A stretch of 64,000 nucleotides of DNA from Candidatus Latescibacterota bacterium (GCA_963667175.2 CAXXXF010000012.1:160001-224000); one strand, 5' to 3'; positions 5,986 through 43,992 are shown, numbered from the stretch's first letter. Numbers and translations are program-made. The notes: generated from the sequence alone by a model not told the origin.

Positions 5986-6023
5986 AAAGAAGCCAATTAC
6001 ACCGTCAAAAAAGCAAGTGGGTC

Positions 6024-6105
6024 GTAGCACAAACTGTTAGTTTGTGCACCGTAAGAAATCCCATCCACGTCTGTCCTCAGCACGCAAACTGACAGTTTGC
6101 GCTAC
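6024..6105. repeat. REPIN 2 (82 bp), overlapping the RAYT stop codon
   Basis: Near-identical to REPIN 1 at an offset of 183 bp. Confidence 0.88.
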
Positions 6106-6844
6106 GGTCCGATGCCCGGCGATAACTCCAACGCCACTCTTCCCAATTTTCCACGAGACCCGCTTTCACCGGGTTGTTAAGAATGTACGTTATAATCCGC
6201 TCCCATTCACTTGCATCCCGAATACATCGATCGTAACTTTCGTGCTGCCAGAATGACCCTTGCCGCCTTAATAGCCGATTTGCTTTCCATGCTGTATAGC
6301 CTTTCAGCGATTGCATAATCGAGGAAAGCGAGTTATAGCACGAATCGCCCGCTTCAGCCGAATTGTCCCGCAAGCTGTCGGAATGCGTTACGGACGGTTG
6401 GGTCACAAGTGGCGCAAACACAATATGAACGTGATTGGCCATGATACAGTAGGCATCCAACCGGTACACCTTCCCATCTCGGTAGCGCAGACTCTCATCC
6501 ACCTCTTTAGCGATTCGCTCATCTTTGAGCCACAAGGGTCCACTTTGCGCACTATCCAGCGTTGTCTCGAATTTCCGGAACCACTGTCGCTGCCATTCCG
6601 ACTCGCGATCTTCCGCATCACGTTCTTTGTCGAGTGTAACGCGTCCTGCTGAGGCAACGCGGCTCCGCAACGAGGCAAGACGCTCTTTTTCTTTTTCGAG
6701 TTGGTGTTTCTCCTGCGCCCATTCTTGCAAGACGATCCGCGGCAGGGAACCTGCAAGATGGAACGTGACAAAGAAAGTTGCGCCGGGCGGCTGTATATGC
6801 GGCAGGTTGCGACGATAGTACGGCTTGTAGTCAAATTGGCTCAT
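6077..6844 (-). mobile_element. REP-associated tyrosine transposase (RAYT, HUH Y1 family)
   Basis: YRRNLPH, FFVTF, YCIMANHVH (HUH), FWQHESYD, YILNNPVKAGL; flanked by REPs. Confidence 0.92.
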
Positions 6845-6871
6845 GTGCTATTTCGTTCTCGGTAGATCGTG

Positions 6872-7090
6872 TCAAGTGTCGCCTGCCCGCAATATGCCTT
6901 GCAGCCGACCCTTTTCTTTTTCTTCGAATGCCTCCGAGATCAAGAAATCCAATTTGCCGGCCCTTGAATCCGCTTCAATCCGCCGATCCCATTTTCTCCA
7001 GTCCAATTCGCTAAACGATTGTCTTAATTCAACATAATCAGATTCCGGAAGCGCCATAATCGCGTCCTTTATTTCAGCTATTTTTGTCAT
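6872..7090 (-). CDS. Small putative antitoxin (orphan)
   Basis: 72 aa with WDRRIEADSRAGKLDFLISEA, typical of small proteins upstream of RelE/ParE-like toxins; no toxin follows. Confidence 0.6.
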   Translation of the reverse strand: MTKIAEIKDAIMALPESDYVELRQSFSELDWRKWDRRIEADSRAGKLDFLISEAFEEKEKGRLQGILRAGDT

Positions 7091-7285
7091 TTTACATACC
7101 CCTCGTCAAATCCGTTTCCAGACAAAGACTGCGATTCTTGAACACCGATTTTCCGATCAGGTGGAAAAGATCGACCCCAGCCATCCAGTGATATACGGGA
7201 TGGTTTCAGAAGCAACTACGCGGGACTTTGAAATCTCGACGAATGAAATCGATTGAACCGAATTGATCGTACTCCTTTGCACGTC

Positions 7286-7314
7286 CAATTCGGGAGACGC
7301 CGTCTCCCGAATTG
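7286..7314. repeat. Perfect 14-bp inverted repeat
   Basis: caattcgggagacg-c-cgtctcccgaattg. Confidence 0.8.
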
Positions 7315-7528
7315 CAGCTTACACTATGGAGAAGAGCCGATACCGCCGCCACTCCGTCTCGTCCACTCGCACCGACCCATCTCTCCGTAGCCTACCGGCA
7401 AGCTTTACAAGAACTGTGTTCCCAATTTGTGACCGCTTCTTGGAGATCAAGGTATACGTAGCCCACCCATTCCGACAGTCTCGCCTCATTAACCCGCAGG
7501 ATGGACGTTTTCTGCACGGTGTTTGGTT

Positions 7529-7813
7529 CTATTGTCTACCTCGGTCAGGATTCATCCATTGGGGAAGCGGAGTCCCCGTCGCCTCTGCATACAAAGTCTC
7601 AGGTGCGATGTCGATTTCGCTTCCCCACGTAAGTACCCCAAGCTCCTCGTTCACGTTAAAGCTCCGAAAGTACTCGAGGTCCCTGAATCGCTCGAACACG
7701 CCACGCCTTTCCAGTTGTTTCGCGAAGTCAACGGTCCCGCGCCGGCCGTCATCGAACTCCAGTTCTATTCGATAGCCACCCTGGTAGGTTGCAGAAATCA
7801 CGTCGTGCAGCAT
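7529..7813 (-). CDS. DUF2442 family protein (DhiA-like antitoxin), copy 1
   Basis: YRIELEFDDGRRG ... LTWGSEIDIAPETLY. Confidence 0.88.
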   Translation of the reverse strand: MLHDVISATYQGGYRIELEFDDGRRGTVDFAKQLERRGVFERFRDLEYFRSFNVNEELGVLTWGSEIDIAPETLYAEATGTPLPQWMNPDRGRQ

Positions 7814-7826
7814 CCGCGGTTCCCTT

Positions 7827-7979
7827 CTATTGCAGAGGTGGTATTCTTCCTGGGGGCATGTCGTCGCACGTCGAATCCCAGTTTTCCATCAACTCCGGCT
7901 GATGTTGGGACGCCCACTCGACGACCAGACCCAGAATCCGCGGAGCCAGTCTCCCTTCCAATACCCGCAGTGAGGACAT
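7827..7979 (-). pseudogene. 5'-truncated DUF4160 (DhiT-like toxin)
   Basis: Hand translation MSSLRVLEGRLAPRILGLVVEWASQHQPELMENW...RIPPLQ* is the C-terminal half only; the N-terminal HxPPHFH region is absent. Confidence 0.75.
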
Positions 7980-8082
7980 CTCGGGCAAATTGAATCCTCT
8001 CGCTCATTTGTATAGTGTAAAACCACCGCAACGAAAGACCCCATCACCAGGTCGCGGCGACTACTGAGCACGTCTTTACGGC

Positions 8083-8307
8083 TCATCGGCTTGCTAATTC
8101 GACGGTCGACGTCGCCGGGGGCAACGGCTTCCCGTCCTCCTGATATAATTCAATTGCGTCCTCTACAATCTGGCAGAGTTGATCGAAGACGGCCCGTTCA
8201 TCGTCTCCGTGGCAGCCGCCGTAAATCAGACCGGGCGCGCTCCCGACATAACATCCATCCTCCTCCGACCATTCGACAATCTTTGCGTACCTCGCGCTGG
8301 CTTTCAT
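8083..8307 (-). CDS. hicB: HicB family antitoxin
   Basis: YAKIVEWSEEDGCYVGSAPGL...GCHGDDE...DGKPLP. Confidence 0.88.
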   Translation of the reverse strand: MKASARYAKIVEWSEEDGCYVGSAPGLIYGGCHGDDERAVFDQLCQIVEDAIELYQEDGKPLPPATSTVELASR

Positions 8308-8501
8308 TTTTCTGACTCCTCGATTGCCAATCGTACGGCACGAACTTGGTAATGCCTAGCGTCGTCACCCGAATTACCCGAGATCGTTAGCGGTTGACTC
8401 AGGTTCGGGTGTACAAAGTTCCTATGGTTACCCTTGCCGCCCCTATCCACAAATCCAGCCCGCGCGAGTTCTGCGACTAATTCCCTCACCTTTGGCGGCA
8501 C
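8304..8501 (-). CDS. hicA: HicA family toxin
   Basis: AGF..RGGKGNHRNFVHP with catalytic His; overlaps the hicB start. Confidence 0.88.
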   Translation of the reverse strand: MPPKVRELVAELARAGFVDRGGKGNHRNFVHPNLSQPLTISGNSGDDARHYQVRAVRLAIEESEK

Positions 8502-8607
8502 CAGGATCCCTTCCGACTCATATCCATATATCGATGGATGTCCATGTCTTCATGCGGATTCGGATCCATAAACAGAATGATGAGCGTTTTCCGGACGGAG
8601 CGTGGTG

Positions 8608-8892
8608 CTATTGTTCAACTCGGTCAGGATTCATCCACTGGGGAAGCGGGGTCCCCGTCGCCTCTGCATACAGAGTCTCCGGTGCGACGTCGATTTCGTT
8701 TCCCCACGTAAGAACCCCAAGCTCCTCGTAAACGGTGAAATTCCTGAAGAACTCAAGGTCCCTGAATCGCTCGAAAACACCCTGTCGGTCCAGATATTTC
8801 GCGAAGTCAACGTTCCCGCGCCGGCCGTCATCGAACTCCAGTTCAATCCGATAGCCGCCCTGATAAGTTGCCGAAACCACGTCGTGCAGCAT
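8608..8892 (-). CDS. DUF2442 family protein, copy 2
   Basis: 81/94 aa identical to 7529-7813 by manual alignment. Confidence 0.88.
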   Translation of the reverse strand: MLHDVVSATYQGGYRIELEFDDGRRGNVDFAKYLDRQGVFERFRDLEFFRNFTVYEELGVLTWGNEIDVAPETLYAEATGTPLPQWMNPDRVEQ

Positions 8893-8905
8893 CCGCGGCC
8901 CCCTT

Positions 8906-9133
8906 CTATTGCAGAGGTGGTATTCTTCCTGGGGGCATGTCGTTGCGCGTTGCGAAACTCAGGGCCGCCAGAACGCCTTGCCTGGTCAAACGGGGATGCG
9001 CTTCGAGTATCTGATCGATTGTCTCGCCTTCTGAAAGTTTCTCCAGGATCAACTCAACGGTAATGCGGGTTCCCGCGACGACGGGCTTTCCCATCATGAC
9101 GACAGGATCGGATTGAATGAGTTTGGCGTCCAT
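8906..9133 (-). CDS. DUF433 family protein (antitoxin-type) fused to a DUF4160 C-terminal tail
   Basis: DPVVMMGKPVVAGTRITVELIL; ends DMPPGRIPPLQ, identical to the DUF4160 relic tail. Confidence 0.85.
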   Translation of the reverse strand: MDAKLIQSDPVVMMGKPVVAGTRITVELILEKLSEGETIDQILEAHPRLTRQGVLAALSFATRNDMPPGRIPPLQ

Positions 9134-9362
9134 ATCTCAACTCCCCATTTGGAGCGAACCTGCAATTTCGTGATGCGGACAGGGGAAACGTGTGAGACTT
9201 CGTTATACCGGCCTCGTCCTCGCGAGACATTGCATCTGCTCGATCGCTTGCGAATCCGACATTGAAGATCAGGCCGCCCGGCGCGATCATAGGACGGTTT
9301 CACTTCACAGGTGTCACGCATTGTTGTCGTAAGCGTCAGGTGGATTGGTGAGACATCTGAAC

Positions 9363-9578
9363 TTATGATGCTATCTCAACGTACATCGAATCCGAGGTTG
9401 GTTCGGGAATCGGATAGCGTTCCTGTTTCATTCCATCGAGGCGGAATTCGATCGCCTCCTTCATGTTCGTTTCCACTTCCCGCCGCGTGGCGCCGGCGGA
9501 CACACATCCTGGTAGATCGGGAGAATATGCCGAAAACCCGGTTTCCGTCACTTCGATGACGATCAAGTACCGATTCAT
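9363..9578 (-). CDS. hicB: HicB family antitoxin (orphan)
   Basis: YLIVIEVTETGFSAYSPDLPGCVSAGATRREV; no hicA upstream. Confidence 0.85.
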   Translation of the reverse strand: MNRYLIVIEVTETGFSAYSPDLPGCVSAGATRREVETNMKEAIEFRLDGMKQERYPIPEPTSDSMYVEIAS

Positions 9579-9681
9579 GCCGTTCCCGTTGTCTATTATC
9601 GTTGCGAGCGCCACACTCGGACCGCATTGCACGAACCGAAACTTGCTCCGTTTCTATTGACCGCACGCGGGAACTCATCCC

Positions 9682-10755
9682 TCACACCCCATGTGCTTCG
9701 ATGAAGTCCTCGTTGACGGTCAGTCCGAGGCCGGGTTCGTCTCCCATGTGGATCAGTCCATCGATGATGCGGAAGGGCGGATCGTAGAGTTGCGACCAGA
9801 TCTGGTACGGCTCGGTGGGCGGGCAGGCGGAGACCATCAGCCCGTTGGGCACGGCGGCGATCAGGTGGCAGTTGATTTCCGGAAACGAGGCCCCATGAGG
9901 CGCCACGTAGACGTGGTGCGCCTCGGCCAGCGCCGCCATCCGCATCAGACCCGTGAAGCCCCCGCCGCCGATAATGTCAGATTGAACCACCTGCATGCCG
10001 CCGTCGACGATCAGATGACGAGTGCCATACAGCGTGCCTTCGCTCTCGCCGCCGGCGACCAGCGCGCTCGTCGCCTCGCGAACCATCCGCATGTGCGCCG
10101 CTTCGTCGTCACCCCGGACGGGTTCCTCGATCCAATACAGGTTGTACGGCTCGAACCGTCGCGCCATGTCCGCGGCCGTTTTTCCCTCCCACATCCGGTG
10201 GACGTCGATCATCAGCCTCGGTCCGTCGCCCAGGGCCTCGCGCGACAGCCGGACCTTATCGAACGCGAGTTCGCGATCGTCATCCGACAGATGGAACTTC
10301 ACGGCCCTGAATCCGAGGTCCGCGTGTTTCCTGACGAGGGCCGCGACCTCCTCGGCGTTCTGATGCTCATAGCCGATCCCGTCCGCGTACGCGGTGACCC
10401 GGTTCCGATACCCGCCCAGCAGCCGCCAGACCGGTTCGCCGCACGCCTTCCCGTACAGATCCCAAATTGCCACGTCCAGCGCGCCGATCGTCCCCATCGC
10501 GGCCCGGCCGGGCCCGCGAAAGCGCCACGCGTGATCGTACATCCGCTGCCATAGCAGCGCCGGGCGGCGCGGGTCTTCGCCCACGAGCAGCGGCGCGAAT
10601 TCACGTTCGATCAGTTCTGCGCTTCCCCCTCTACCGATGCCGGCGAGCCCGTTGTCCGCATGGACAAAGTGAAGGGGCCAGGACCGCTTGACTCCCCGAT
10701 CGGACGGCCCCCAGAAACAGGACAGCGAAACCGTCTCAATTCGTTCGATACGCAT
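9682..10755 (-). CDS. Mandelate racemase/muconate lactonizing enzyme family protein
   Basis: GALDVAIWDLYGKACGEPVWRLLGG, LMID, WIEEP, GGES, APHG. Confidence 0.92.
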   Translation of the reverse strand: MRIERIETVSLSCFWGPSDRGVKRSWPLHFVHADNGLAGIGRGGSAELIEREFAPLLVGEDPRRPALLWQRMYDHAWRFRGPGRAAMGTIGALDVAIWDLYGKACGEPVWRLLGGYRNRVTAYADGIGYEHQNAEEVAALVRKHADLGFRAVKFHLSDDDRELAFDKVRLSREALGDGPRLMIDVHRMWEGKTAADMARRFEPYNLYWIEEPVRGDDEAAHMRMVREATSALVAGGESEGTLYGTRHLIVDGGMQVVQSDIIGGGGFTGLMRMAALAEAHHVYVAPHGASFPEINCHLIAAVPNGLMVSACPPTEPYQIWSQLYDPPFRIIDGLIHMGDEPGLGLTVNEDFIEAHGV

Positions 10756-34601: not shown

Positions 34602-36287
34602 TCAGAACAGCCCCACGGTCTGTCCGGCTTCATCGTAGTCGATCGCCTCGGCTGAAGGTTTTCGGGGGAGCCCCGGCATTGTCATGACGTCGCCGGTGTA
34701 CACCACCACGAAACCGGCCCCGGCAGACACCCGCACGTCGCGGATGGGCACGTTGAAGCCTCTCGGTCTGCCCTTCAGTCCCGGATCGGTCGAGAGCGAA
34801 TACTGGGTCTTGGCCATACATACCGGAAACCTTCCGTACCCCGCTTCCTCGAGCTTTCCGAACCGGGCTCTCAGACGTTTGTCCCCCATGATATCGTCGG
34901 CGCCGTAGATTTCCCGGGCCACGATCCTGGCCTTGTCCCACAACCGCAGGCTATCGGGATACAGAAGGTTGAAATCGGCAGGCGCCGTTTCCGCGGCTTC
35001 GACCACCGTTCGAGCAAGCGCTTCGGCGCCGGCCCCTCCCGCGGCCCAGTGTTCCGCAGGAACGATCGGCAGGTCCATGTCGGCGCACCTGTCCCGGATC
35101 AATGCGACCTCACGGGTGGTGTCGGAAAGAAACCGGTTCACGGCGACGACCGCCGGCAGACCGAAGCGCCGGATATTCTCAATATGCTTCCTGAGGTTTA
35201 CGAGCCCTTTCTCCACCGCGGCCGGATCGGGGTCCGCCAGCCTCCTGAGCGACGTCCCTCCATGGTATTTCAGCCCCCGGACGGTTGCCACGAGCACCAC
35301 TACGTCCGGGCGGATGCCGGCCTGCCGGCACTTGATGTTCAGAAATTTCTCCGCGCCGAGGTCCGCGCCGAATCCGGCTTCGGTCACGGTGTATTCCCCC
35401 AGACGCATCGCCAACTTCGTCGCGATCACCGAATTGCATCCGTGCGCGATATTGGCGAACGGACCCCCGTGGACGATCGCCGGGTTGTTCTCGAGCGTCT
35501 GGACCAGATTCGGTTTCAACGCGTCCTTCAACAGCACGGCCATCGCTCCGTGCACATTGAGATCTGCCGCCGTGACCGGTTCGTTGGCCCGTGTGCGCGC
35601 AACGACAATTCGACCCAGCCGCTCACGAAGCTCGTCGAGCGACTCGGACAGGCAGAAGATCGCCATCACTTCGGACGCGACCGTGATCTCAAACCCGGAT
35701 TCTCGAGGAAAGGAATTCCCCGTGCCCCCAAGACCGATGACGATGTCCCGCAACGCCCGGTCGTTCATATCCATGGCGCGCTTCCACAGGATGCGCCGGG
35801 GATCGATATCCAGCCTGTTCCGGTGATGAAGTTGGTTGTCGATTGCCGCGGCCAGCAGATTGTGGGCGACGCCGATGGCATGGATATCGCCCGTAAAGTG
35901 CAGGTTGATGTCCTCCATTGGCGCGACCTGCGAGGCCCCGCCGCCGGCAGCGCCTCCCTTCATGCCGAAACAGGGACCCAGAGAGGGCTCCCGGAGACAC
36001 ACGGCCGCGCGCTTGCCCAGCCGGTTCAGCGCGTCGCACAGACCCACGGTTGTGGTGGTCTTGCCCTCGCCGGAGGGCGTCGGATTGATCGCCGAGACCA
36101 GCACCAGTTTTCCGGTGGGATTTCCGGCCAGGCTGTCGCAGAAATCCAACGAAACCTTGGCCTTGTGCCTGCCATAGACCTCCAGTTGATCTTCCGGAAC
36201 GCCCAGCTTTCGCCCGACCTCGCCGACATGAAGCAAATCGGCCTGCCTCGCGATCTCGATATCCGGCAGTATCCCCTGTTCGCCCAT
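34602..36287 (-). CDS. fhs: Formate-tetrahydrofolate ligase
   Basis: [48 protein letters not shown]. Confidence 0.97.
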
Positions 36288-36296
36288 CGATTCCCT

Positions 36297-37689
36297 TCAG
36301 TTTCCCCGCGCTTCGTCGACTTCCGCCTGAACGAGTTCGTTCGCGTCCGCCGTTTCGTTCTCGATGGTCGCGTGATCCAGACCCGCCAGCTCGATTCGCC
36401 CCGGAACGCGGAGAACGCCCAGCTTCTTGAGGATCGCGCCCACCACGTAACAGGGCAGAAAACCCAGCACGAAAAACATGATGACGGCGCCGAGCGTCTG
36501 ACCCCACGGCGTTATCGGGGCGTATTCGGGATTCGCGCCCGGATACCCCCACAGAACGAATCCCGCGACAATCACGCCGATGACCCCGGCATAGCCATGC
36601 ACCGCCACGGCGCCCACCGCATCGTCGATCCTGAAGCGGCGTTCGACCCAATTGTGCAGCTTGTACATGCAGAACGTGCCGAATGCGCCGATGAGAAGCG
36701 CCTGCATCGGATGATACAGGTCGTTGCCGGCCGACGCCGTGATGATACCGGCCAGTCCGCCCGAGAAGGTCCAGTAAGGATCGCCTTTGGACACGAAATA
36801 CCCCATGATCAATCCGCCGGCGAGAGACATCAGAAAGTTGAAGGTGATGGCGCTGAGCGTCGTGGGTGTCAGGTAAATCGTGGTGGCCGAGAAGAACGAC
36901 CTGCCGTCGGCCGCATCGACGTCCATAATGGGAACGTTGCAGGCCGCGTAGAAGCCCCAGAATCCGGTATAGATCAGAAACAGTCCGATAATGACCAGCC
37001 ACGTGTTCTGCGGCGGGAAATTCCTCGGAGAGCCGTCAGGCCTGAACCTGCCGATGCGCGGCCCGAGGTGATAGAGTATCGCCAGCGCGGAACCGCCGCT
37101 GATCGCGTGGATCACGCCGGACGCGTACGCGTCGTGATAACCCAGCAACTGCACCATCCAGCCGTCCGCGGACCATCCCCACGCCGCATCGATCACCCAG
37201 GTGACCGACCCCACCAGCACCGCAAAAATCCAGAACGCGCCGGATCGGATGCGTTCGATGACCGCCCCCGAAAGAATCGATCCCGCCGTCAACGAAAACA
37301 GAAGAAACGCCGCCCAGAACACGCCGTTCAACCGCGCCCAGAGTGCCGTATCATCCCCGGTCAAGCCCCCGGAGTGCGGCTTTCCCCCCATTATGCGTCC
37401 CCATCAGTTCATTCCACGGCGCCGCCCAGGCGGCTTGTATGAGTCCGCCCGTGATCCCGGGCCCGTTCTGGACCGCAAAGTAGATCCACCACCCGAAGAA
37501 ATAGAACGTGATGGTCACCAGAGGAATCAGCATCGCGTTCTTCATCAGGGTGTGCATCATATTCTTCCGCCTGGAGACGCCGACTTCATACAGACAGAAG
37601 CCGACGTGGATCAGGAACATGAGAACGATGCATATCCAGTAATAGAACTCCGTAAACACGACCGTCAATGCGCTGAGTTCGTTATCCAT
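36297..37689 (-). CDS. amt: Ammonium/methylammonium transporter (one apparent +1 frameshift near 37392)
   Basis: Two ORFs join: MFLIHVGFCLYE.. then SGAVIERI, HDAYASG, GPRIGRF, IDDAVGAVAVHG. Confidence 0.9.
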
Positions 37690-37742
37690 TCCACTCCTCC
37701 CTATTGTGCTTGAATACGCCGACAGGCATGCGACAGAAACCT

Positions 37743-38231
37743 TCAGACCTCCGCGGACCCTTCCGCCATCCGGCTATACTTCCCCCGGTAAAACAGCAGC
37801 GGACGACCCACGCCGGCGTCGCCCGCCACAATCTCACCAACGAAAATGTCGTGGTCGCCGGTCCGCAGCACCTCGATCAGCAGACACTCCACGTGGCCCA
37901 GCGCGTCCGCGAAGACGGGCGATCCCGTCCGGCCAGCGGAGGAAGCCACGTTCGAAAAGTCCTTCGGGCCCGGCCTGGCGAACTGTACGGAAAGCGCTTC
38001 CTGATCCTCGTTGAGGATATTCAATGCAAATTGCCGGCTGGCGGTCAGATGGGCGTGCATCTGCGCCCCCTTGTCCACGGCGACCATGACCAGGGGCGGG
38101 TCCAGCGACAGCGAGGTCACGGCATTGGCCGTCATCCCCCGGGACTCGCCTCCCGCAACCGTCGTCACGACGGTTACCCCGGTCGCGAAACAACCCATAA
38201 TCCGCCGTTGTTCCATCGGGTCGAACGCCAT
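37743..38231 (-). CDS. Flavin reductase (HpaC/DIM6-NTAB family)
   Basis: FATGVTVVT, GMTANAVTSLSLDPPL, GDHDIFVGE, PLLFYRG. Confidence 0.93.
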   Translation of the reverse strand: MAFDPMEQRRIMGCFATGVTVVTTVAGGESRGMTANAVTSLSLDPPLVMVAVDKGAQMHAHLTASRQFALNILNEDQEALSVQFARPGPKDFSNVASSAGRTGSPVFADALGHVECLLIEVLRTGDHDIFVGEIVAGDAGVGRPLLFYRGKYSRMAEGSAEV

Positions 38232-38350
38232 TCCGATACCCTCTCAATGGCCGCGGCGCAGGATTCGGCCTCGTCCGCCGCCGGACGTCCGGACGCTGTG
38301 AACCGGACCGCCGGGATACCCGTTGAAGCGTCCCAGGTTTCGCTTATCGA

Positions 38351-40692
38351 TCAGGACCGGGGCCGGGTCTTCTCCGGATCGTAGAACGGCAACGGCGCCA
38401 CGCGGGCGGGTATGCGCTTCTGATGTCCGTCCAGCCTTCCCACCTCCACGGCCACGCCGACCGCTGCGTACCCGGTCGCCAGACGGCACAGCGCGATATT
38501 CCTGGCCCAGAATGGGTGAGCGGGCGCCGCTGGTAATCACGCCCACGCGGGCCCTTCCGTCATAGACGTCGTCGCCGGTGGCGGCGGGCTCGTTTCCGGA
38601 CAACTCCAGGCCCACGAGCACGCGTTGCGGATGGGACCGCCTTTGTATCAGCGCCTCTTTACCGATGAAATCGTCTTTCTTGCGTTCGAGCGGAACGGTG
38701 AAGCCGATGCCCGCCTCGAACGGATCCGTCTGATCGTCGAACTCGCAGCCGGCGAAAACCAGACCCGCCTCGATCCGAAGCATGTCCAGGGCTTCCAGCC
38801 CCAGTGGGGTCAGGCCATGCGGCTGCCCCGATTCCCATATGGCATCCCAGACTTCGGGCGCATCGTCGGGATGGCACCACACCTCATAGCCCAGTTCGCC
38901 CGTGTAGCCGGTCCTGGAGACCACAACCGCCGCTCCGCTTCCATGGCCGATTCGACCCACCGTGAATCGGAACCAGCCCAATTCGACCAGGGACGGACGC
39001 GACGGAGGCGTCCCAGATGACTTCCTTGAGAATATCCCGGCTTCTCGGGCCCTGGACGGCAAGATTATGGAGTTGGTCCGTGGCGTTTCTGACCCATACC
39101 CGCATCCCGCGGCGACTCGCCTGCTCGCGCAACCACGCCCCGCCGTAGTCGTCTCCGCAGATCCAGCGAAAATTCTCGGGACCCAACCGGAACAGGGTCC
39201 CGTCGTCCAGCATGCCGCCGGTTTCATAGCACATGGCGGAATACGTCACCTGGCCCGTCGAAATCCTGCGAACGTCTCGCGTGAGCGTGAGCTGCAGCAA
39301 CGCCTCGGCGTCCGGCCCCAGGACCTCGAACTTGCGAAGCGCGGACAGGTCCATCACCGCCGCCGCCTCACGACAGGCGTAATACTCCTCGACGGCGCCC
39401 TTCCCCGTAAAGGAGTACGGCAGCCAGAAACCGCGGTATTCCTCGAAATTTCGAGTCAGGGCCGAGGTTCGCCGGTGAAAGGCCGTCTCCCTCGTCAACC
39501 TCGGTTCGGCGTCTGCCGTCATCCGGTGCGCAATTCCTCTGGAAAAACCGGTACCGTTCGGGGTAGACGCGGACCTGGATCTCTGTTGGCTCCCAACCGT
39601 TGGCCGGATCGATATCGTCCGGGCACGCGGACGACAGGCAGACCAGGTCCGTCAGGGCTTTCAGCAGCACGTAGTCCCCCGGACGAGACCATGGTTCGTC
39701 CATGACAAGGACGTTATTCAGGTCGATTCTCGTATTGTAGAAAAAGTTCACCGCGGGCCAGCCGCGGCGGGACTGAATCGTATACGGGGCCAGTGCCGCG
39801 TTGAAGTTGTCCGTACAGTTGACGTGGCCCGGGTAACCCATATCCTCGTAATATTTCGCGGTGCACGCAAGCGCAAACGTATCGTGCCGACCTACCGTAT
39901 CCCGAACCACTTCGACCAGCGGCTGCATATCCTGGTCGTAAAACTTCGAGAAAAGTCCCGGACCGGGATAAGCGGCGCCCATGAGCGTCCGCGTCGTGGG
40001 TCGCGTCCAGACCCCGCTCGATGCCCCGTTGCAACCGCCTGGCGTCGAACGCCAGAAAATCGGAACACTGCCGGCCGGCGGCGTCGATCACCTGGATGAA
40101 CTCTCCGGCCTTTACCTCGTATGCGATCGCCGACGCCTTCTCCACCTCCAGATCCAGGCGCATGTCGCCAAGAGGCGACGGAAGCGGGGGACGTTCCGGC
40201 GCCTCAACGCGCGAACGCCTGACCACCACGTCGAGGTCCGTGGGAGGGTCCTGGGCATCCACCCTCATCGGCGCCCCCGGCGCCGCAATCAGGCAGACGG
40301 CGTCGTCTGCGGCGTGGAAACACGCTTCGGCGCCGGCTTCCGTTTCTCCGCCGAAGACCTGCACCGCTCTGGCGCGGGGCAAGGTCAACGCCGCGCCGCC
40401 GAAGCGCCGCGTCGGCCGCCTGCGCGCTTTCGTCGCCCCGCCTGAGCGCGGCCGCGAAACCTTCCATCGCGCCATCCGCCCGGAGTCCCAGCCTGGACGG
40501 ATCGGCATTGCCGTCCGGACCGAACACACCCAGTTCGCATCGCTGGCGCCCCTCCACGTCCACAACCGCAAGCCGGTCGCCAGGCGCCAGCGCCAGGGCG
40601 ATCGCCCCGCCGCCCGGCACCCGATAGCGCTCCCTGCCCGGCGTCCACCTCAGCAGTCCCGTCCCCGTCATTTGGACGTCCGCAGGCATCAC
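38351..40692 (-). CDS. tdm: DUF1989 + GcvT aminomethyltransferase fusion (TMAO demethylase-like), split by ~5 apparent frameshifts
   Basis: Fragments give GRQCSDFLAF, GRHDTFALAC, GHVNCTDNFN, SSACPDDIDPANGW, DLSALRKFEV, SRTGYTGELGYE, RIEAGL. Confidence 0.82.
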
Positions 40693-42089
40693 CCTTCTTC
40701 GGTTTCAGCCAGAAGCTGGCGCGCGAGTTCCTTCTTCTTCTCGCCGTCCATTTTCTTGAGTTCGTTCCTCAACAACCGCTCGTTCACCGACTGGTTCCAG
40801 TAGTCCAGGGAGTCGAATCCCAGCAGCACGCTCTTGCCCACAAACTGGCGGAGGACCTCGTTCGTGGGGCCCATCACCCAGCCGGCCTTGCCGTCGCGCA
40901 GGTACCGTTCAATCCCAAGGTCGGGTTTGTACCCCGTCCCGCCGCAGGCATGGAGCATCTTGTCGGAGACGTTTGCCACGTTCTTCGCCGCGGTGAACTT
41001 TACCTGCCACATCCAGTGCAGCACGTCCGCCCTGGGCATGCAGGAGAAGGTCCCGGTGGATGGACCAGTCGCACCGATTCGTGACGTCGTCCATCGCGCG
41101 GGCCATCAGGTAGACAAAGGACCGGGAGGCGTTGGTATCGATCACGGCTTCGCCCACGTAGTCCTGGATTGTCGGGTAGTCCGCCACCCGCATGCCCACG
41201 TCAGCGTGCCGCCTGGCGGTGGTATGCCGCCTGGCGATGTCGATCATCCCCAGAGAAATGCCGTTCCAGCAGGCCGATGAGCACAACAGGAAGAACGGAT
41301 CCACCGTCTCGTCGTTCGAATTCGCCCCGTCACCCACCGGCCCCACCAGCCTGCTCTCGGGCATCGTGACGTTGTCGACCTCCAGCGTGCCGGACTGATT
41401 CCCGCGCAGACCCAGGCCGTCCCACAGCGACGGTTCCGCTTTCACCTCGTCGGCCATAACGAGAAAGCAGGAAAGATTCGAATAGTCACCCGCGAAATCC
41501 GGACTCGTCGTCTGCACGATGTACCAATCGGCGAAGCCCGCGGACGTCGTCCAGGACGCCTTCTTCCGCACCTTCCAGCCGCCTTCCACCCGCTCGGCCC
41601 CGGAAGAAACGGGGTAGGTACCAGAAATGAGAGCCCGTCTCCGGGTCCGAATAGGATAACGTGCCCACCAGCACGTCGCTGTCGAGGCGTTTCATGAGGC
41701 CCCTGAAGCGTCGCATTGTCGTGCGCCCGAAACATGGCGGCGGCCACGGCCCCGACGTGCATGGTGTAACACATTGCGGTACTGGCGCACCCGTAACGCG
41801 CGATCGTCTCCACCACCATCGCCGTACACGTGTGGTCTTCTCCCAGACCTCCCCATTCGCGGGGCACGTTCAGTCCCAGCAGACCCAGCGAAGCCAGCGC
41901 TTCGAAGTTTTCCCGTGGAAACACGAGGTTGCGATCGCTTTCTACCGCGTTGTCCCGCAGCGTTGTCCGGCAGAGGTCGATCAGTTTCTCCTGGAGCGCC
42001 CGCTGCCCGGGCGTCAATACCCATTGGGGATCCCAATCGTAGTCCAGACCCCAGAACGCCTCCGGGCCCCACGTCTTCGTATTGCTCAT
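40689..42089 (-). CDS. Acyl-CoA dehydrogenase-fold flavoprotein (possible monooxygenase), split by apparent frameshifts
   Basis: VPREWGGLG, SDPETGSH, KASWTTSAG, WDGLGLRGNQS, GGTGY..IERYLRD, VMGPTNE. Confidence 0.85.
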
Positions 42090-42104
42090 TGCGCCTCCGG
42101 GTTT

Positions 42105-42537
42105 TCAGGTTGCCGGGTTTGAGACTGCGCCATGCGCGTCGTCGTCAAGATTCATGCCGTAGGCATCTCCAAGTTCCATCATCGGATGATTATCGGACAT
42201 CTGAAACTTGACGAGCAGCTCCCGTGCGATCATATCACGCTCCTGCTGGTTGTCGGGCAGCGCCATGTCTACGGGAACCAGCACCCAGCCGTTGATGTTC
42301 CGGTCGAATACCGCCGGCTTTCCGTCTTCGTATCCCATATGCACGTCTTCCAACCAGTTCAGGTCCCGCCACCCCATAACCTCGATGTATCGCTTCAGGA
42401 ACGGAGTCAGGAGCCCGTAGTCCGGCGGCAGGTTCACGTCGTAACCGGTATCCGATGTGCTGGCCGATTTCCTTCTCGCGGTCCGAGTCCAGCCCCGTGG
42501 ACTCGAGGTAGTAGTTCACGTCTTTGGCTTCGTCCAT
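42105..42537 (-). CDS. Conserved-looking hypothetical protein (~140 aa, one apparent frameshift near 42445)
   Basis: AGGAG RBS + MDEAKDVNYYLES..HIGY joins DVNLPPDY..WLEDVHMGYE..FDRNINGW. Confidence 0.7.
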
Positions 42538-42621
42538 CGGATTCTCCTGGCGCGGCGCCCTGCCCCCGGAATTGCGAGCGCAGGACCGGTGGCCGTGCGG
42601 TGGGTTACTCGCTTCCGCCGT

Positions 42622-43992
42622 TCAATACCTGTTCATCTCGGGATGTCCGACCGTATAGCGGGTACCTGCCAGGGGCACCTCCGCCATGGCGGAGGCTTCC
42701 ATGGTGAGCGCGGCAAGATCCTCCGGCTCCAGGGAATGAACGTCGGTCTTGCCGCAGGCCCTGGCGAACATCTGGCATTCGATCGCCAGGGTATGCAGGA
42801 AGTTATACACCCGCTCGGCCGCGTCATCCGGGTCCAGCCGGCTGCGCAGGTCCGGATCCTGGGTGGCCACGCCCACGGGGCAGAGTCCGGTATGGCAGTG
42901 ATAGCATTGCCCCGCCGGAACGCCTACCGTGCCTTCGTAATCCGCCTCGGGGATATCCTTGTTGCAATTCAGCGCCACCATCGCCGCCGTACCGATGGCC
43001 ACCGCGTCGGCGCCGAGCGCAAGCGCCTTGGCCACGTCGGCCCCGTTGCGAATCCCGCCCGCGTAGACGAGCGTAATCGCTCCGGTCTTGCCCACGTCGT
43101 CCAGCGCTTTTCTGGCCTGCCGGATGGCCGCGATCCCCGGCACGCCCGTCTCCTCGGTGGCCAGATGGGGCCCCGCCCCCGTCGAGCCCTCCATCCCGTC
43201 CATATAGATGCTGTCGGGCCCCGTCTTCGCTGCCATCCGCACGTCGTCGTAAACACGGGCCGCGCCGAGCTTCAATTGAATCGGCACCTGCCAATTGGTC
43301 GCCTCCCGGATCTCTTCGATCTTCAGGGCAAGATCGTCGGGGCCCAGCCAGTCCGGGTGCCTCGCCGGCGAACGCTGGTCGATCCCCGCGGGCAGCGAAC
43401 GCATTTCAGCCACCTGGTCGGTTACTTTCTGGCCCATCAGGTGGCCGCCGAGCCCCACCTTGCATCCCTGGCCGATAAAAAACTCCACGCCGTCGGCGAG
43501 GCGCATGTGGTGCGGGTTGAACCCGTAGCGGGACTGGATGCACTGGTAGAGCCACTTCTCGGAATACCGGCGCTCGTCGGGCAGCATGCCCCCTTCTCCC
43601 GAGCAGGTGGCGGTGCCCGCCATCGTGGCCCCTCTTGCCAGCGCCACTTTCGCCTCGTAGGATAACGCGCCGAAGCTCATGCCCGTAACGTAGACGGGAA
43701 TATCCAGCACGAGCGGCCGTTCGGCCCCGGGCCCGATCACCGTCCGGGTCTCACATTTCTCACGGTATCCCTCGATCACGAACCTTGTGAGCGTGCCGGG
43801 AAGAAACGTCAGGTCGTCCCACGATGGAATCTGCTTGAAAAGCGCCATGCCCCGCATTCGGTACCGCCCCAGATTCGCCTTGACGTGGATGTCGTCGATC
43901 ACGTGGGGCGGAAACATGAAATTCCTGCCCAGAACCTGGGGGTTCCGGTCATGCCGGCCATTTCCGGAAACGTCATTTCCGGGTGTATCCAT
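42622..43992 (-). CDS. mgsC: FMN-binding glutamate synthase-like subunit (N-methylglutamate synthase MgsC/GlxD)
   Basis: GMSFGALS, SGEGG, GQGCKVGLGGHL, RHPDW, CYHCHTGLCPVG. Confidence 0.88.
   Translation of the reverse strand: MDTPGNDVSGNGRHDRNPQVLGRNFMFPPHVIDDIHVKANLGRYRMRGMALFKQIPSWDDLTFLPGTLTRFVIEGYREKCETRTVIGPGAERPLVLDIPVYVTGMSFGALSYEAKVALARGATMAGTATCSGEGGMLPDERRYSEKWLYQCIQSRYGFNPHHMRLADGVEFFIGQGCKVGLGGHLMGQKVTDQVAEMRSLPAGIDQRSPARHPDWLGPDDLALKIEEIREATNWQVPIQLKLGAARVYDDVRMAAKTGPDSIYMDGMEGSTGAGPHLATEETGVPGIAAIRQARKALDDVGKTGAITLVYAGGIRNGADVAKALALGADAVAIGTAAMVALNCNKDIPEADYEGTVGVPAGQCYHCHTGLCPVGVATQDPDLRSRLDPDDAAERVYNFLHTLAIECQMFARACGKTDVHSLEPEDLAALTMEASAMAEVPLAGTRYTVGHPEMNRY

Follow-up and report, generated by a model that had tools for sequence, protein, structure and literature searches.

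A candidate two-component flavin oxygenase with an acyl-CoA dehydrogenase fold in a methylated-amine gene cluster of Candidatus Latescibacterota

Closest described systems

Methylated amines form a large pool of nitrogen in the sea and in soils and give rise to climate-active aerosols. Their aerobic degradation is accepted to proceed through Tmm, Tdm, Dmm, and GmaS. We analyzed a 64,000-nucleotide stretch of the genome of a Candidatus Latescibacterota bacterium (GCA_963667175.2 CAXXXF010000012.1:160001-224000; contig C12:160001-224000; this whole stretch is hereinafter referred to as the window), in which a protein with the fold of acyl-CoA dehydrogenases (ACADs) is encoded beside tdm, the gene for trimethylamine N-oxide (TMAO) demethylase, and a flavin reductase of the PF01613 family. 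The ACAD-fold protein is quite probably an oxygenase of the methylated-amine pathway. The narrower proposal that it forms a two-component flavin monooxygenase with the reductase, most likely one converting trimethylamine (TMA) to TMAO, is made tentatively, and TMA is the leading, though by no means assured, candidate for its main substrate. The step filled would be this one or the conversion of dimethylamine (DMA) to monomethylamine (MMA).

Tmm (NF058570) carries out the same reaction as proposed here and occupies the same place beside tdm, and among tdm-bearing genomes it is anticorrelated with the ACAD-fold gene. The two proteins, however, are not homologous. Tmm works as a class B flavoprotein that has one component and depends on NADPH, whereas the other is proposed to work in two components, and both genes co-occur in 6 of 46 carrier genomes. 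DmmDABC, whose haem subunit corresponds to PF11927, performs an oxygen-dependent step of the same pathway and is often clustered with tdm, but its constituents (haem-PAS subunit, FeS reductase, and GcvT-like subunit) are unrelated to the ACAD-fold pair.

Group D monooxygenases, namely DszC, SfnB, HsaA, the C2 component of p-hydroxyphenylacetate (HPA) hydroxylase, and N-hydroxylases such as isobutylamine N-hydroxylase, have an ACAD-type fold in common with the window protein and, like it, lack the catalytic Glu and are encoded alongside an HpaC-type reductase (PF01613). A published account of the group (PMC6165268) describes the ACAD-type fold, HpaC-like reductases, and oxygenation of amine nitrogen, N-hydroxylases being included among its members. 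In contrast to these similarities, the window protein resembles them weakly in sequence, scoring 53-69 bits on the respective models against cut-offs of 431-850 (DszC, 63/850; SfnB, 69/431; HsaA, 63/450; HPA hydroxylase, 53/650). It also has N- and C-terminal extensions of its own, and the proposed small methylated-amine substrate would be new for the group.

The best NCBIfam match of the window protein was Rv1679/FadE16 (NF049984; 218 bits), and the window family falls under the cut-off of that model (600 bits). More distant relatives of about 30% identity scored 264-391 bits on it and share M-x-P in place of Y-E-G, whereas Rv1679/FadE16-type proteins are about 380 aa long and lack the extensions. 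Among open-access papers and preprints, nothing relevant was found on an ACAD-fold enzyme beside tdm or on growth of Xanthobacter on trimethylamine, and no open-access title or abstract that we found addressed the function of Rv1679/FadE16. The kind of enzyme, a two-component ACAD-fold oxygenase, is known; the clade, its pathway context, and its probable substrate appear to be new.

The ACAD-fold protein and its linkage to tdm and a reductase

Several genes of the window cluster are frameshifted, and the copies in the intact cluster of a relative of the same genus (genome G009, locus L012; 93% identical) served as stand-ins for them. The ACAD-fold protein has the three-domain fold of ACADs (alpha, beta, alpha), corresponding to the N, M, and C domains of Pfam. 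Its AF2 model had a pLDDT of 92.4, and the best Foldseek matches of the model were solved ACADs (2cx9 and 3mpi, TM about 0.9); in this comparison, ACADs and a "flavin-containing monooxygenase" (5z8t, rank 9) scored alike, so that the fold did not tell dehydrogenases and oxygenases apart. The best match to a solved structure by sequence was a true ACAD (8i4p, 111 bits), and homologues of the protein bear the database label "acyl-CoA dehydrogenase family protein".

The motif VMGPTNE was read in the translation of 40689-41039. Because W-V-M-G-P-T-N-E aligns over Q-I-Y-E-G-T-N-Q of the best solved relatives, and thus onto I-Y-E-G-T-N of solved ACADs, the catalytic Glu is replaced by Gly (Gly405). 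A Phe stands at the IVD-type alternative position, and there is no catalytic Glu at either site, the reference residues being Glu376 of MCAD and Glu254 of IVD. In an alignment of 50 sequences, the Glu376 equivalent was Gly in all 14 close members and Ala or Gly in 29 of the 33 distant ones, and the motif V-M-x-P-T was kept throughout, the form V-M-(A/G)-P-T extending to relatives of about 30% identity, whose best-scoring model is Rv1679/FadE16. Curated ACAD equivalogs of NCBIfam other than Rv1679/FadE16 gave 104 bits or less, under their cut-offs. Close family members carry a Trp-rich N-terminal extension (residues 1-25) and a helical C-terminal extension (residues 422-464), both of which are lacking in distant relatives.

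In addition, three relatives contain a C-terminal FAD_binding_6 + NAD_binding_1 module: P0122 (52% identical, 770 aa) and P0129 and P0134 (36% identical, 882 aa). They are natural fusions of an ACAD-fold domain with a ferredoxin-reductase-like FAD/NAD module and fit an enzyme that is fed reducing equivalents by NAD(P)H. Electron flow from NAD(P)H would fit the direction of an oxygenase, not that of a dehydrogenase reducing electron-transfer flavoprotein (ETF).

The family (464-468 aa) varies remarkably little, with identities of 72-95% between members from at least six phyla. Of 1492 matches, the best 120 were 74-95% identical and 457-511 aa long, and their labels included Latescibacteria, Acidobacteria, Alpha- and Gammaproteobacteria, and Udaeobacter. 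When each species was represented by a single genome, a scan yielded 239 relatives, of which 80 loci were kept; by submitter label, these comprised 51 Pseudomonadota, 10 Latescibacterota, 6 Acidobacteriota, 5 Cyanobacteriota, 4 Gemmatimonadota, 1 Verrucomicrobiota, 1 Melainabacteria, and 2 unnamed loci. Cultured carriers include Xanthobacter flavus, Xanthobacter sp. AM33, two Labrys species, Dongia deserti, Virgifigura deserti, and Zavarzinia. Phyla were mixed in places in a quick tree of the proteins, which suggests transfer of the gene between phyla. The proteins of L050 (labeled Candidatus Udaeobacter) and L047 (Alphaproteobacteria) were near neighbors on the tree, and their loci shared gene order; this likeness reflects either recent transfer or a binning error.

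The surroundings of the 80 loci, many of which were short contigs, were searched with the proteins of the G009 cluster. We found tdm in 55 loci and a flavin reductase in 53. In the 49 loci flanked by at least 5 kb on both sides, with neighbors counted within 10 kb, tdm was present in 42, a PF01613 reductase in 38, both in 35, and either in 45. Homologues are thus strongly enriched beside tdm, as was asked for in a first-pass annotation of the window, which was made from the sequence alone and proposed a flavin oxygenase of methylated amines. The reductase gene directly adjoined the ACAD-fold gene (at most 313 bp away) in 28 of the 80 loci. Since gene order and orientation differ between lineages, the linkage is maintained and not merely inherited.

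The same association was seen by presence and absence. The ACAD-fold gene was present in 18 of the 41 genomes of the window's lineage; 16 of these encode a full-length Tdm, and the window's own genome (G000) encodes one in pieces. G002 had no Tdm, and its ACAD-fold gene was reduced to a 58-aa piece. The 23 lineage genomes lacking the ACAD-fold gene gave no Tdm match above about 206 bits. Thus, in the relatives of the window, the ACAD-fold gene and tdm occur jointly or not at all.

The gene cluster and errors in its assembly

All genes of the cluster lie on the minus strand. From the upstream end, they are as follows:

42622-43992, minus strand: mgsC-like FMN subunit (glutamate-synthase central domain), 456 aa; PF01645, 302 bits
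42105-42537, minus strand: small conserved protein, about 145 aa; no known family; one insertion near 42444
40689-42089, minus strand: ACAD-fold protein, proposed oxygenase component; Acyl-CoA_dh N, M, and C domains in three ORF pieces
38351-40692, minus strand: tdm, trimethylamine N-oxide demethylase; DUF1989 + GCV_T + GCV_T_C in five pieces
37743-38231, minus strand: HpaC-type NAD(P)H:flavin reductase, proposed reductase component, 162 aa; PF01613, 143 bits
36297-37689, minus strand: amt, Amt-family transporter; PF00909, 190 bits (G009 orthologue); insertion near 37392
34602-36287, minus strand: fhs, formate-tetrahydrofolate ligase; PF01268, 859 bits
32864-34198, minus strand: gmaS-type glutamine-synthetase-like ligase; Gln-synt_C, 354 bits
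31441-32805, minus strand: Nramp-family metal transporter, end of the cluster; NF037982, 106 bits against a cut-off of 50 (G009 orthologue)

After removal of the insertions near 41703, 41620, and 41048, the ACAD-fold gene encodes about 464 aa, and its intact orthologue in G009 encodes 464 aa. Removal of five 1-base insertions gives a tdm product of about 778 aa. The pieces of the window tdm were 85-95% identical to the G009 orthologue (tblastn), which scored 1244 bits on NF053776, the NCBIfam equivalog for TMAO demethylase (cut-off 1100). The sequence GTGA at 40689-40692 is common to the stop of the ACAD-fold gene and the start of tdm, and the same 4-base overlap occurs in G009; the two genes are translationally coupled in both genomes. 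The matches of the flavin reductase to HpaC, HsaB, and StyB-type models of NCBIfam were all under cut-off, as was that of Amt to TIGR00836 (181 bits). The gmaS orthologue scored 598 bits on TIGR03105 (cut-off 470). In this genus, the cluster ends with the gene for the Nramp transporter (96% identity by tblastn). Tdm reportedly requires Fe and Zn. Among the ORFs scanned from 32.8 to 50.4 kb, no match to an ETF or CoA-ligase family was found.

The first-pass annotation had described the co-oriented gene order, the overlap between the two coupled genes, the HpaC-type reductase beside the ACAD-fold protein in a methylated-amine cluster, the motif VMGPTNE in place of the catalytic IYEGTNE, and the lack of an ETF or CoA ligase nearby, and all of these were confirmed. 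It had also grouped the small protein with the ACAD-fold protein and the reductase as filling the missing step, a view that its distribution does not support: the small protein was found in 23 of the 80 loci and adjoined an mgsC-like gene in 22 of them, the copy in L060 lying at the end of the fetched stretch. It is strongly conserved, 64 columns being invariant among 15 sequences drawn from several phyla, but had no Pfam or NCBIfam match and no usable match in a protein atlas search. Judging from this gene context, the small protein belongs to an mgsC-like module, not to the oxygenase. A complex prediction for the mgsC-like and small proteins, run without controls, scored 0.00, which speaks neither for nor against a complex.

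This module is a second, highly conserved paralogue of gmaS/mgsABC. Its five genes encode the small protein and the mgsC-like FMN subunit together with a glutamine synthetase (GS)-like ligase, a GATase, and a GXGXG protein. Its GS-like ligase (495-535 aa) is 30% identical to GmaS, and the small protein in it is 125-145 aa long. The mgsC-like gene is 81-95% identical across phyla and is a paralogue, 59% identical, of the canonical mgsC on contig C11 of the same genome. The module was located at 42105-43992 in the window and at 70.7-74.0 kb of C11 (L105 8755-12036). In nine loci (L026-L029, L035, L040, L051, L058, and L071), it immediately precedes the ACAD-fold gene and tdm, and it is contiguous with them in other genera of Latescibacterota, in Acidobacteriota, and in some Alphaproteobacteria. 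The five-gene module might handle another amine such as DMA.

The genome containing the window is 5.5 Mb in 18 contigs and 95% complete. Compared with the G009 cluster, the window copy has ten insertions. One, near 41620, is of 4 bases; the other nine, near 42444, 41703, 41048, 40379, 40000, 39547, 39014, 38505, and 37392, are of 1 base, and each of these doubles a neighboring base. They split the genes for the small protein, the ACAD-fold protein, Tdm, and Amt; the same comparison showed no insertions in the flanking mgsC-like gene, fhs, and gmaS. The insertions are packed within 5 kb (37392-42444), mostly a few hundred bases apart, and low local coverage or a polishing fault are possible causes. 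At nine of the ten sites, the extra letters were missing from the contigs of four public runs, and the X1 and X4 contigs were otherwise identical to the window, with 0 other letters differing. The tenth site, near 39014, lay under an X1 contig that aligned with one gap. Because the public contigs omit the extra letters, the breaks come from mistakes in this assembly, and the cluster genes are intact in the organism; a pseudogenized cluster was considered and rejected on the same ground.

Among public runs, the best matches to the window came from sponge metagenomes, and two RNA runs (X19 and X20) contained a small share of the words sampled from the stretch. The G+C content was 0.52-0.56 at 6001-10000 of the window, compared with about 0.62-0.65 elsewhere in it, and this part may be foreign DNA.

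Candidate substrates and implications

The window's genome and 41 relatives gave no match to Tmm (NF058570, PF00743), and the haem subunit of Dmm (PF11927) was not found in the window's genome at its 95% completeness. Neither was found in G009, G007, G008, and G015, four of the five complete relatives. The lack of tmm and dmm that the first-pass annotation had reported for the window therefore extends to the genome, the PF11927 negative being the weaker of the two: PF11927 matched none of 14 control genomes and 14 of 70 genomes in the present sample, so that absences of dmm are soft. As to other routes, no MttB (PF06253) was found in the window's genome. Trimethylamine dehydrogenase was considered and rejected, since the only Oxidored_FMN match was weak and partial, and the domains of the 618-aa ORF containing it are not arranged as in that enzyme. 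Contig C11 carries canonical mgsABC together with soxA/soxB-like (mgd-type) genes, and the route from MMA onward is thus encoded.

The distribution of Tmm was compared in 401 evenly drawn Alphaproteobacteria, 33 of which had Tdm. Of these, 15 had Tmm, nine had the ACAD-fold gene with no overlap between the two groups, and nine had neither. Tmm was accordingly present in 0 of the 9 genomes carrying the ACAD-fold gene, compared with 15 of the 24 lacking it (Fisher p = 0.0014, or 0.003 without the center genome), values that overstate the contrast because the sampled genomes are related and differ in habitat. PF11927 showed no contrast (2 of 9 and 6 of 24, respectively). Among 46 carrier genomes, six had Tmm, eight had PF11927, two (the two Labrys) had both, and 34 had neither. 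The mutual exclusivity that had been suggested as a check thus stands for Tmm as an anticorrelation; it is not strict, as tmm accompanies the ACAD-fold gene in three loci, and it does not extend to dmm.

If TMA is the substrate, the PF01613 reductase would reduce free FAD or FMN with NAD(P)H, and the ACAD-fold protein would take up the reduced flavin, form a C4a-hydroperoxyflavin with O2, and pass one oxygen atom to the nitrogen of TMA to give TMAO. Tdm, encoded by the translationally coupled gene, would split TMAO into DMA and formaldehyde, the formaldehyde being taken up by tetrahydrofolate, and the products of fhs, gmaS, and the mgs/mgd genes on C11 would handle the C1 unit and MMA. The pair would then be a non-homologous stand-in for the single-component Tmm of the flavin-containing monooxygenase (FMO) type.

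Local context points both ways, and two arrangements suit TMA. In five loci (Xanthobacter, Labrys, and a metagenome-assembled genome [MAG] of Burkholderiales), the order is ACAD-fold gene, reductase, tdm, permease, and dmm genes, and the three Xanthobacter and Burkholderiales genomes among them had no Tmm; dmm beside the ACAD-fold gene suits a TMA oxygenase. In 13 of the 80 loci (L037, L047, L048, L050, L052-L055, L057, L059, L063, L065, and L068), a HAL-family lyase without the Ala-Ser-Gly (methylidene-imidazolone, MIO) triad is encoded just upstream of the reductase and ACAD-fold genes. In these loci (for example L047, 6066-9187), an FA_desaturase-like gene and a cold-shock-domain gene precede them along with the lyase gene. 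According to a preprint (bioRxiv 10.1101/2025.08.13.670108), MIO-less enzymes of the HAL family release TMA from ergothioneine or histidine betaine. The lyase of these loci may release TMA from a betaine such as hercynine or ergothioneine. Tmm was missing in nine of the ten HAL-lyase genomes tested, which, together with the lyase upstream, points to TMA as the compound oxidized there.

Several observations weigh against a two-component TMA oxygenase. In both sequence and fold, true ACADs resemble the protein more closely than any characterized group D oxygenase does, and no reductase was found within 10 kb in 11 of the 49 well-flanked loci, including those of Acidobacteriota and Cyanobacteria. 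The fold, the loss of the catalytic Glu, the conserved linkage to tdm and a flavin reductase, the reductase fusions of relatives, and the anticorrelation with tmm were observed, whereas we infer the use of O2 and reduced flavin, as well as the substrate. The Fisher values, as stated, overstate the anticorrelation, most carrier MAGs have no completeness figure, and PF11927 may miss some dmm genes. In the six carriers with Tmm, a TMA oxygenase would be redundant, and the four of them other than Labrys lack PF11927, which fits a role in DMA oxidation better. Moreover, tmm lies between the ACAD-fold gene and tdm in three loci (L059 of Virgifigura, L060, and L078; the L059 tmm scored 861 bits against a cut-off of 675). 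Finally, the step that the window's own cluster leaves unfilled on the way from tdm to gmaS is that from DMA to MMA, not that from TMA to TMAO.

These last points lead to the alternative that ranks next, although we consider it rather unlikely: the pair would be a DMA monooxygenase/demethylase that replaces DmmDABC and turns the DMA from Tdm into MMA for GmaS. The window cluster extends from tdm as far as gmaS, and its genome gave no dmm match. With the ACAD-fold gene, tmm, and tdm, the loci L059, L060, and L078 would hold a complete TMA-to-MMA route, and PF11927 was missing from their genomes and from G059; tmm beside the ACAD-fold gene without PF11927 suits a DMA enzyme. PF11927 was likewise missing from 38 of the 46 carriers. 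Lidbury et al. (2017; PMC5520151) document that dmmDABC is missing from many bacteria with tmm, tdm, and gmaS, which makes the DMA step an acknowledged gap. That gap alone, however, needs no replacement by the ACAD-fold protein, as dmm was also missing in 18 of the 24 genomes without the ACAD-fold gene. The strong anticorrelation is with tmm and there is none with PF11927, and in the five loci with dmm genes in the same cluster a DMA role would be redundant. The chemistry is also unfavorable: flavin hydroperoxides typically oxygenate nitrogen, and N-oxygenation of a secondary amine gives a hydroxylamine, not MMA.

An improbable alternative is an N-oxygenase with a wider methylamine range that takes TMA as well as DMA, with Tdm demethylating both products so that two methyl groups are removed in turn, each round comprising an N-oxygenation and a Tdm-type rearrangement that yields formaldehyde. 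If this were true, carriers would need neither Tmm nor Dmm, and the enzyme would supply the DMA step in many bacteria that have tdm and gmaS without dmm. The 34 of 46 carriers with neither Tmm nor PF11927 agree with this, as do the co-inheritance of the ACAD-fold gene with tdm and their translational coupling in the window and G009; in addition, four of the six Tmm carriers lack PF11927 and six of the eight PF11927 carriers lack Tmm. Against it, the two Labrys genomes carry the ACAD-fold gene, tmm, and dmm together, and among open-access papers and preprints we found none on Tdm accepting N,N-dimethylhydroxylamine; the proposal is entirely inferential.

Slightly less probable still is oxidation of another nitrogen compound, for example a gamma-glutamyl amide or an N-methylated glutamate from the five-gene module. 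Other amines are known to be activated by a GS-like enzyme and then oxygenated, and the module directly precedes the ACAD-fold gene and tdm in the nine loci named above. It is, however, present in only about 13-24 of the 80 loci, compared with 55 for tdm, and linkage to tdm and the reductase is also seen where it is missing. Lastly, it is very improbable that the protein is an ordinary acyl-CoA (or acyl-carrier) dehydrogenase or oxidase lying beside tdm by chance or for an unrelated reason, since, despite best matches to true ACADs in sequence and structure (8i4p, 2cx9, and 3mpi) and to Rv1679/FadE16 in NCBIfam, it lacks the catalytic Glu at both known positions, falls far under the cut-offs of all ACAD equivalogs, has no ETF or CoA ligase in its cluster, is linked to tdm and a flavin reductase across phyla, and has relatives fused to NAD(P)H reductase modules.

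Organisms with the gene pair beside tdm include Latescibacterota living as sponge symbionts, Acidobacteriota, many Alphaproteobacteria from soil, and Cyanobacteria, and most carrier genomes have no Tmm. With cultured carriers at hand, the question is directly testable. If the pair acts on DMA, it would bear on the known DMA bottleneck (PMC5520151). If, as we tentatively prefer, it oxidizes TMA, surveys based on tmm would undercount TMA oxidizers, above all outside the pelagic ocean, and the ACAD fold would have been recruited once again to oxygenase chemistry, in an Rv1679-like clade without known function.

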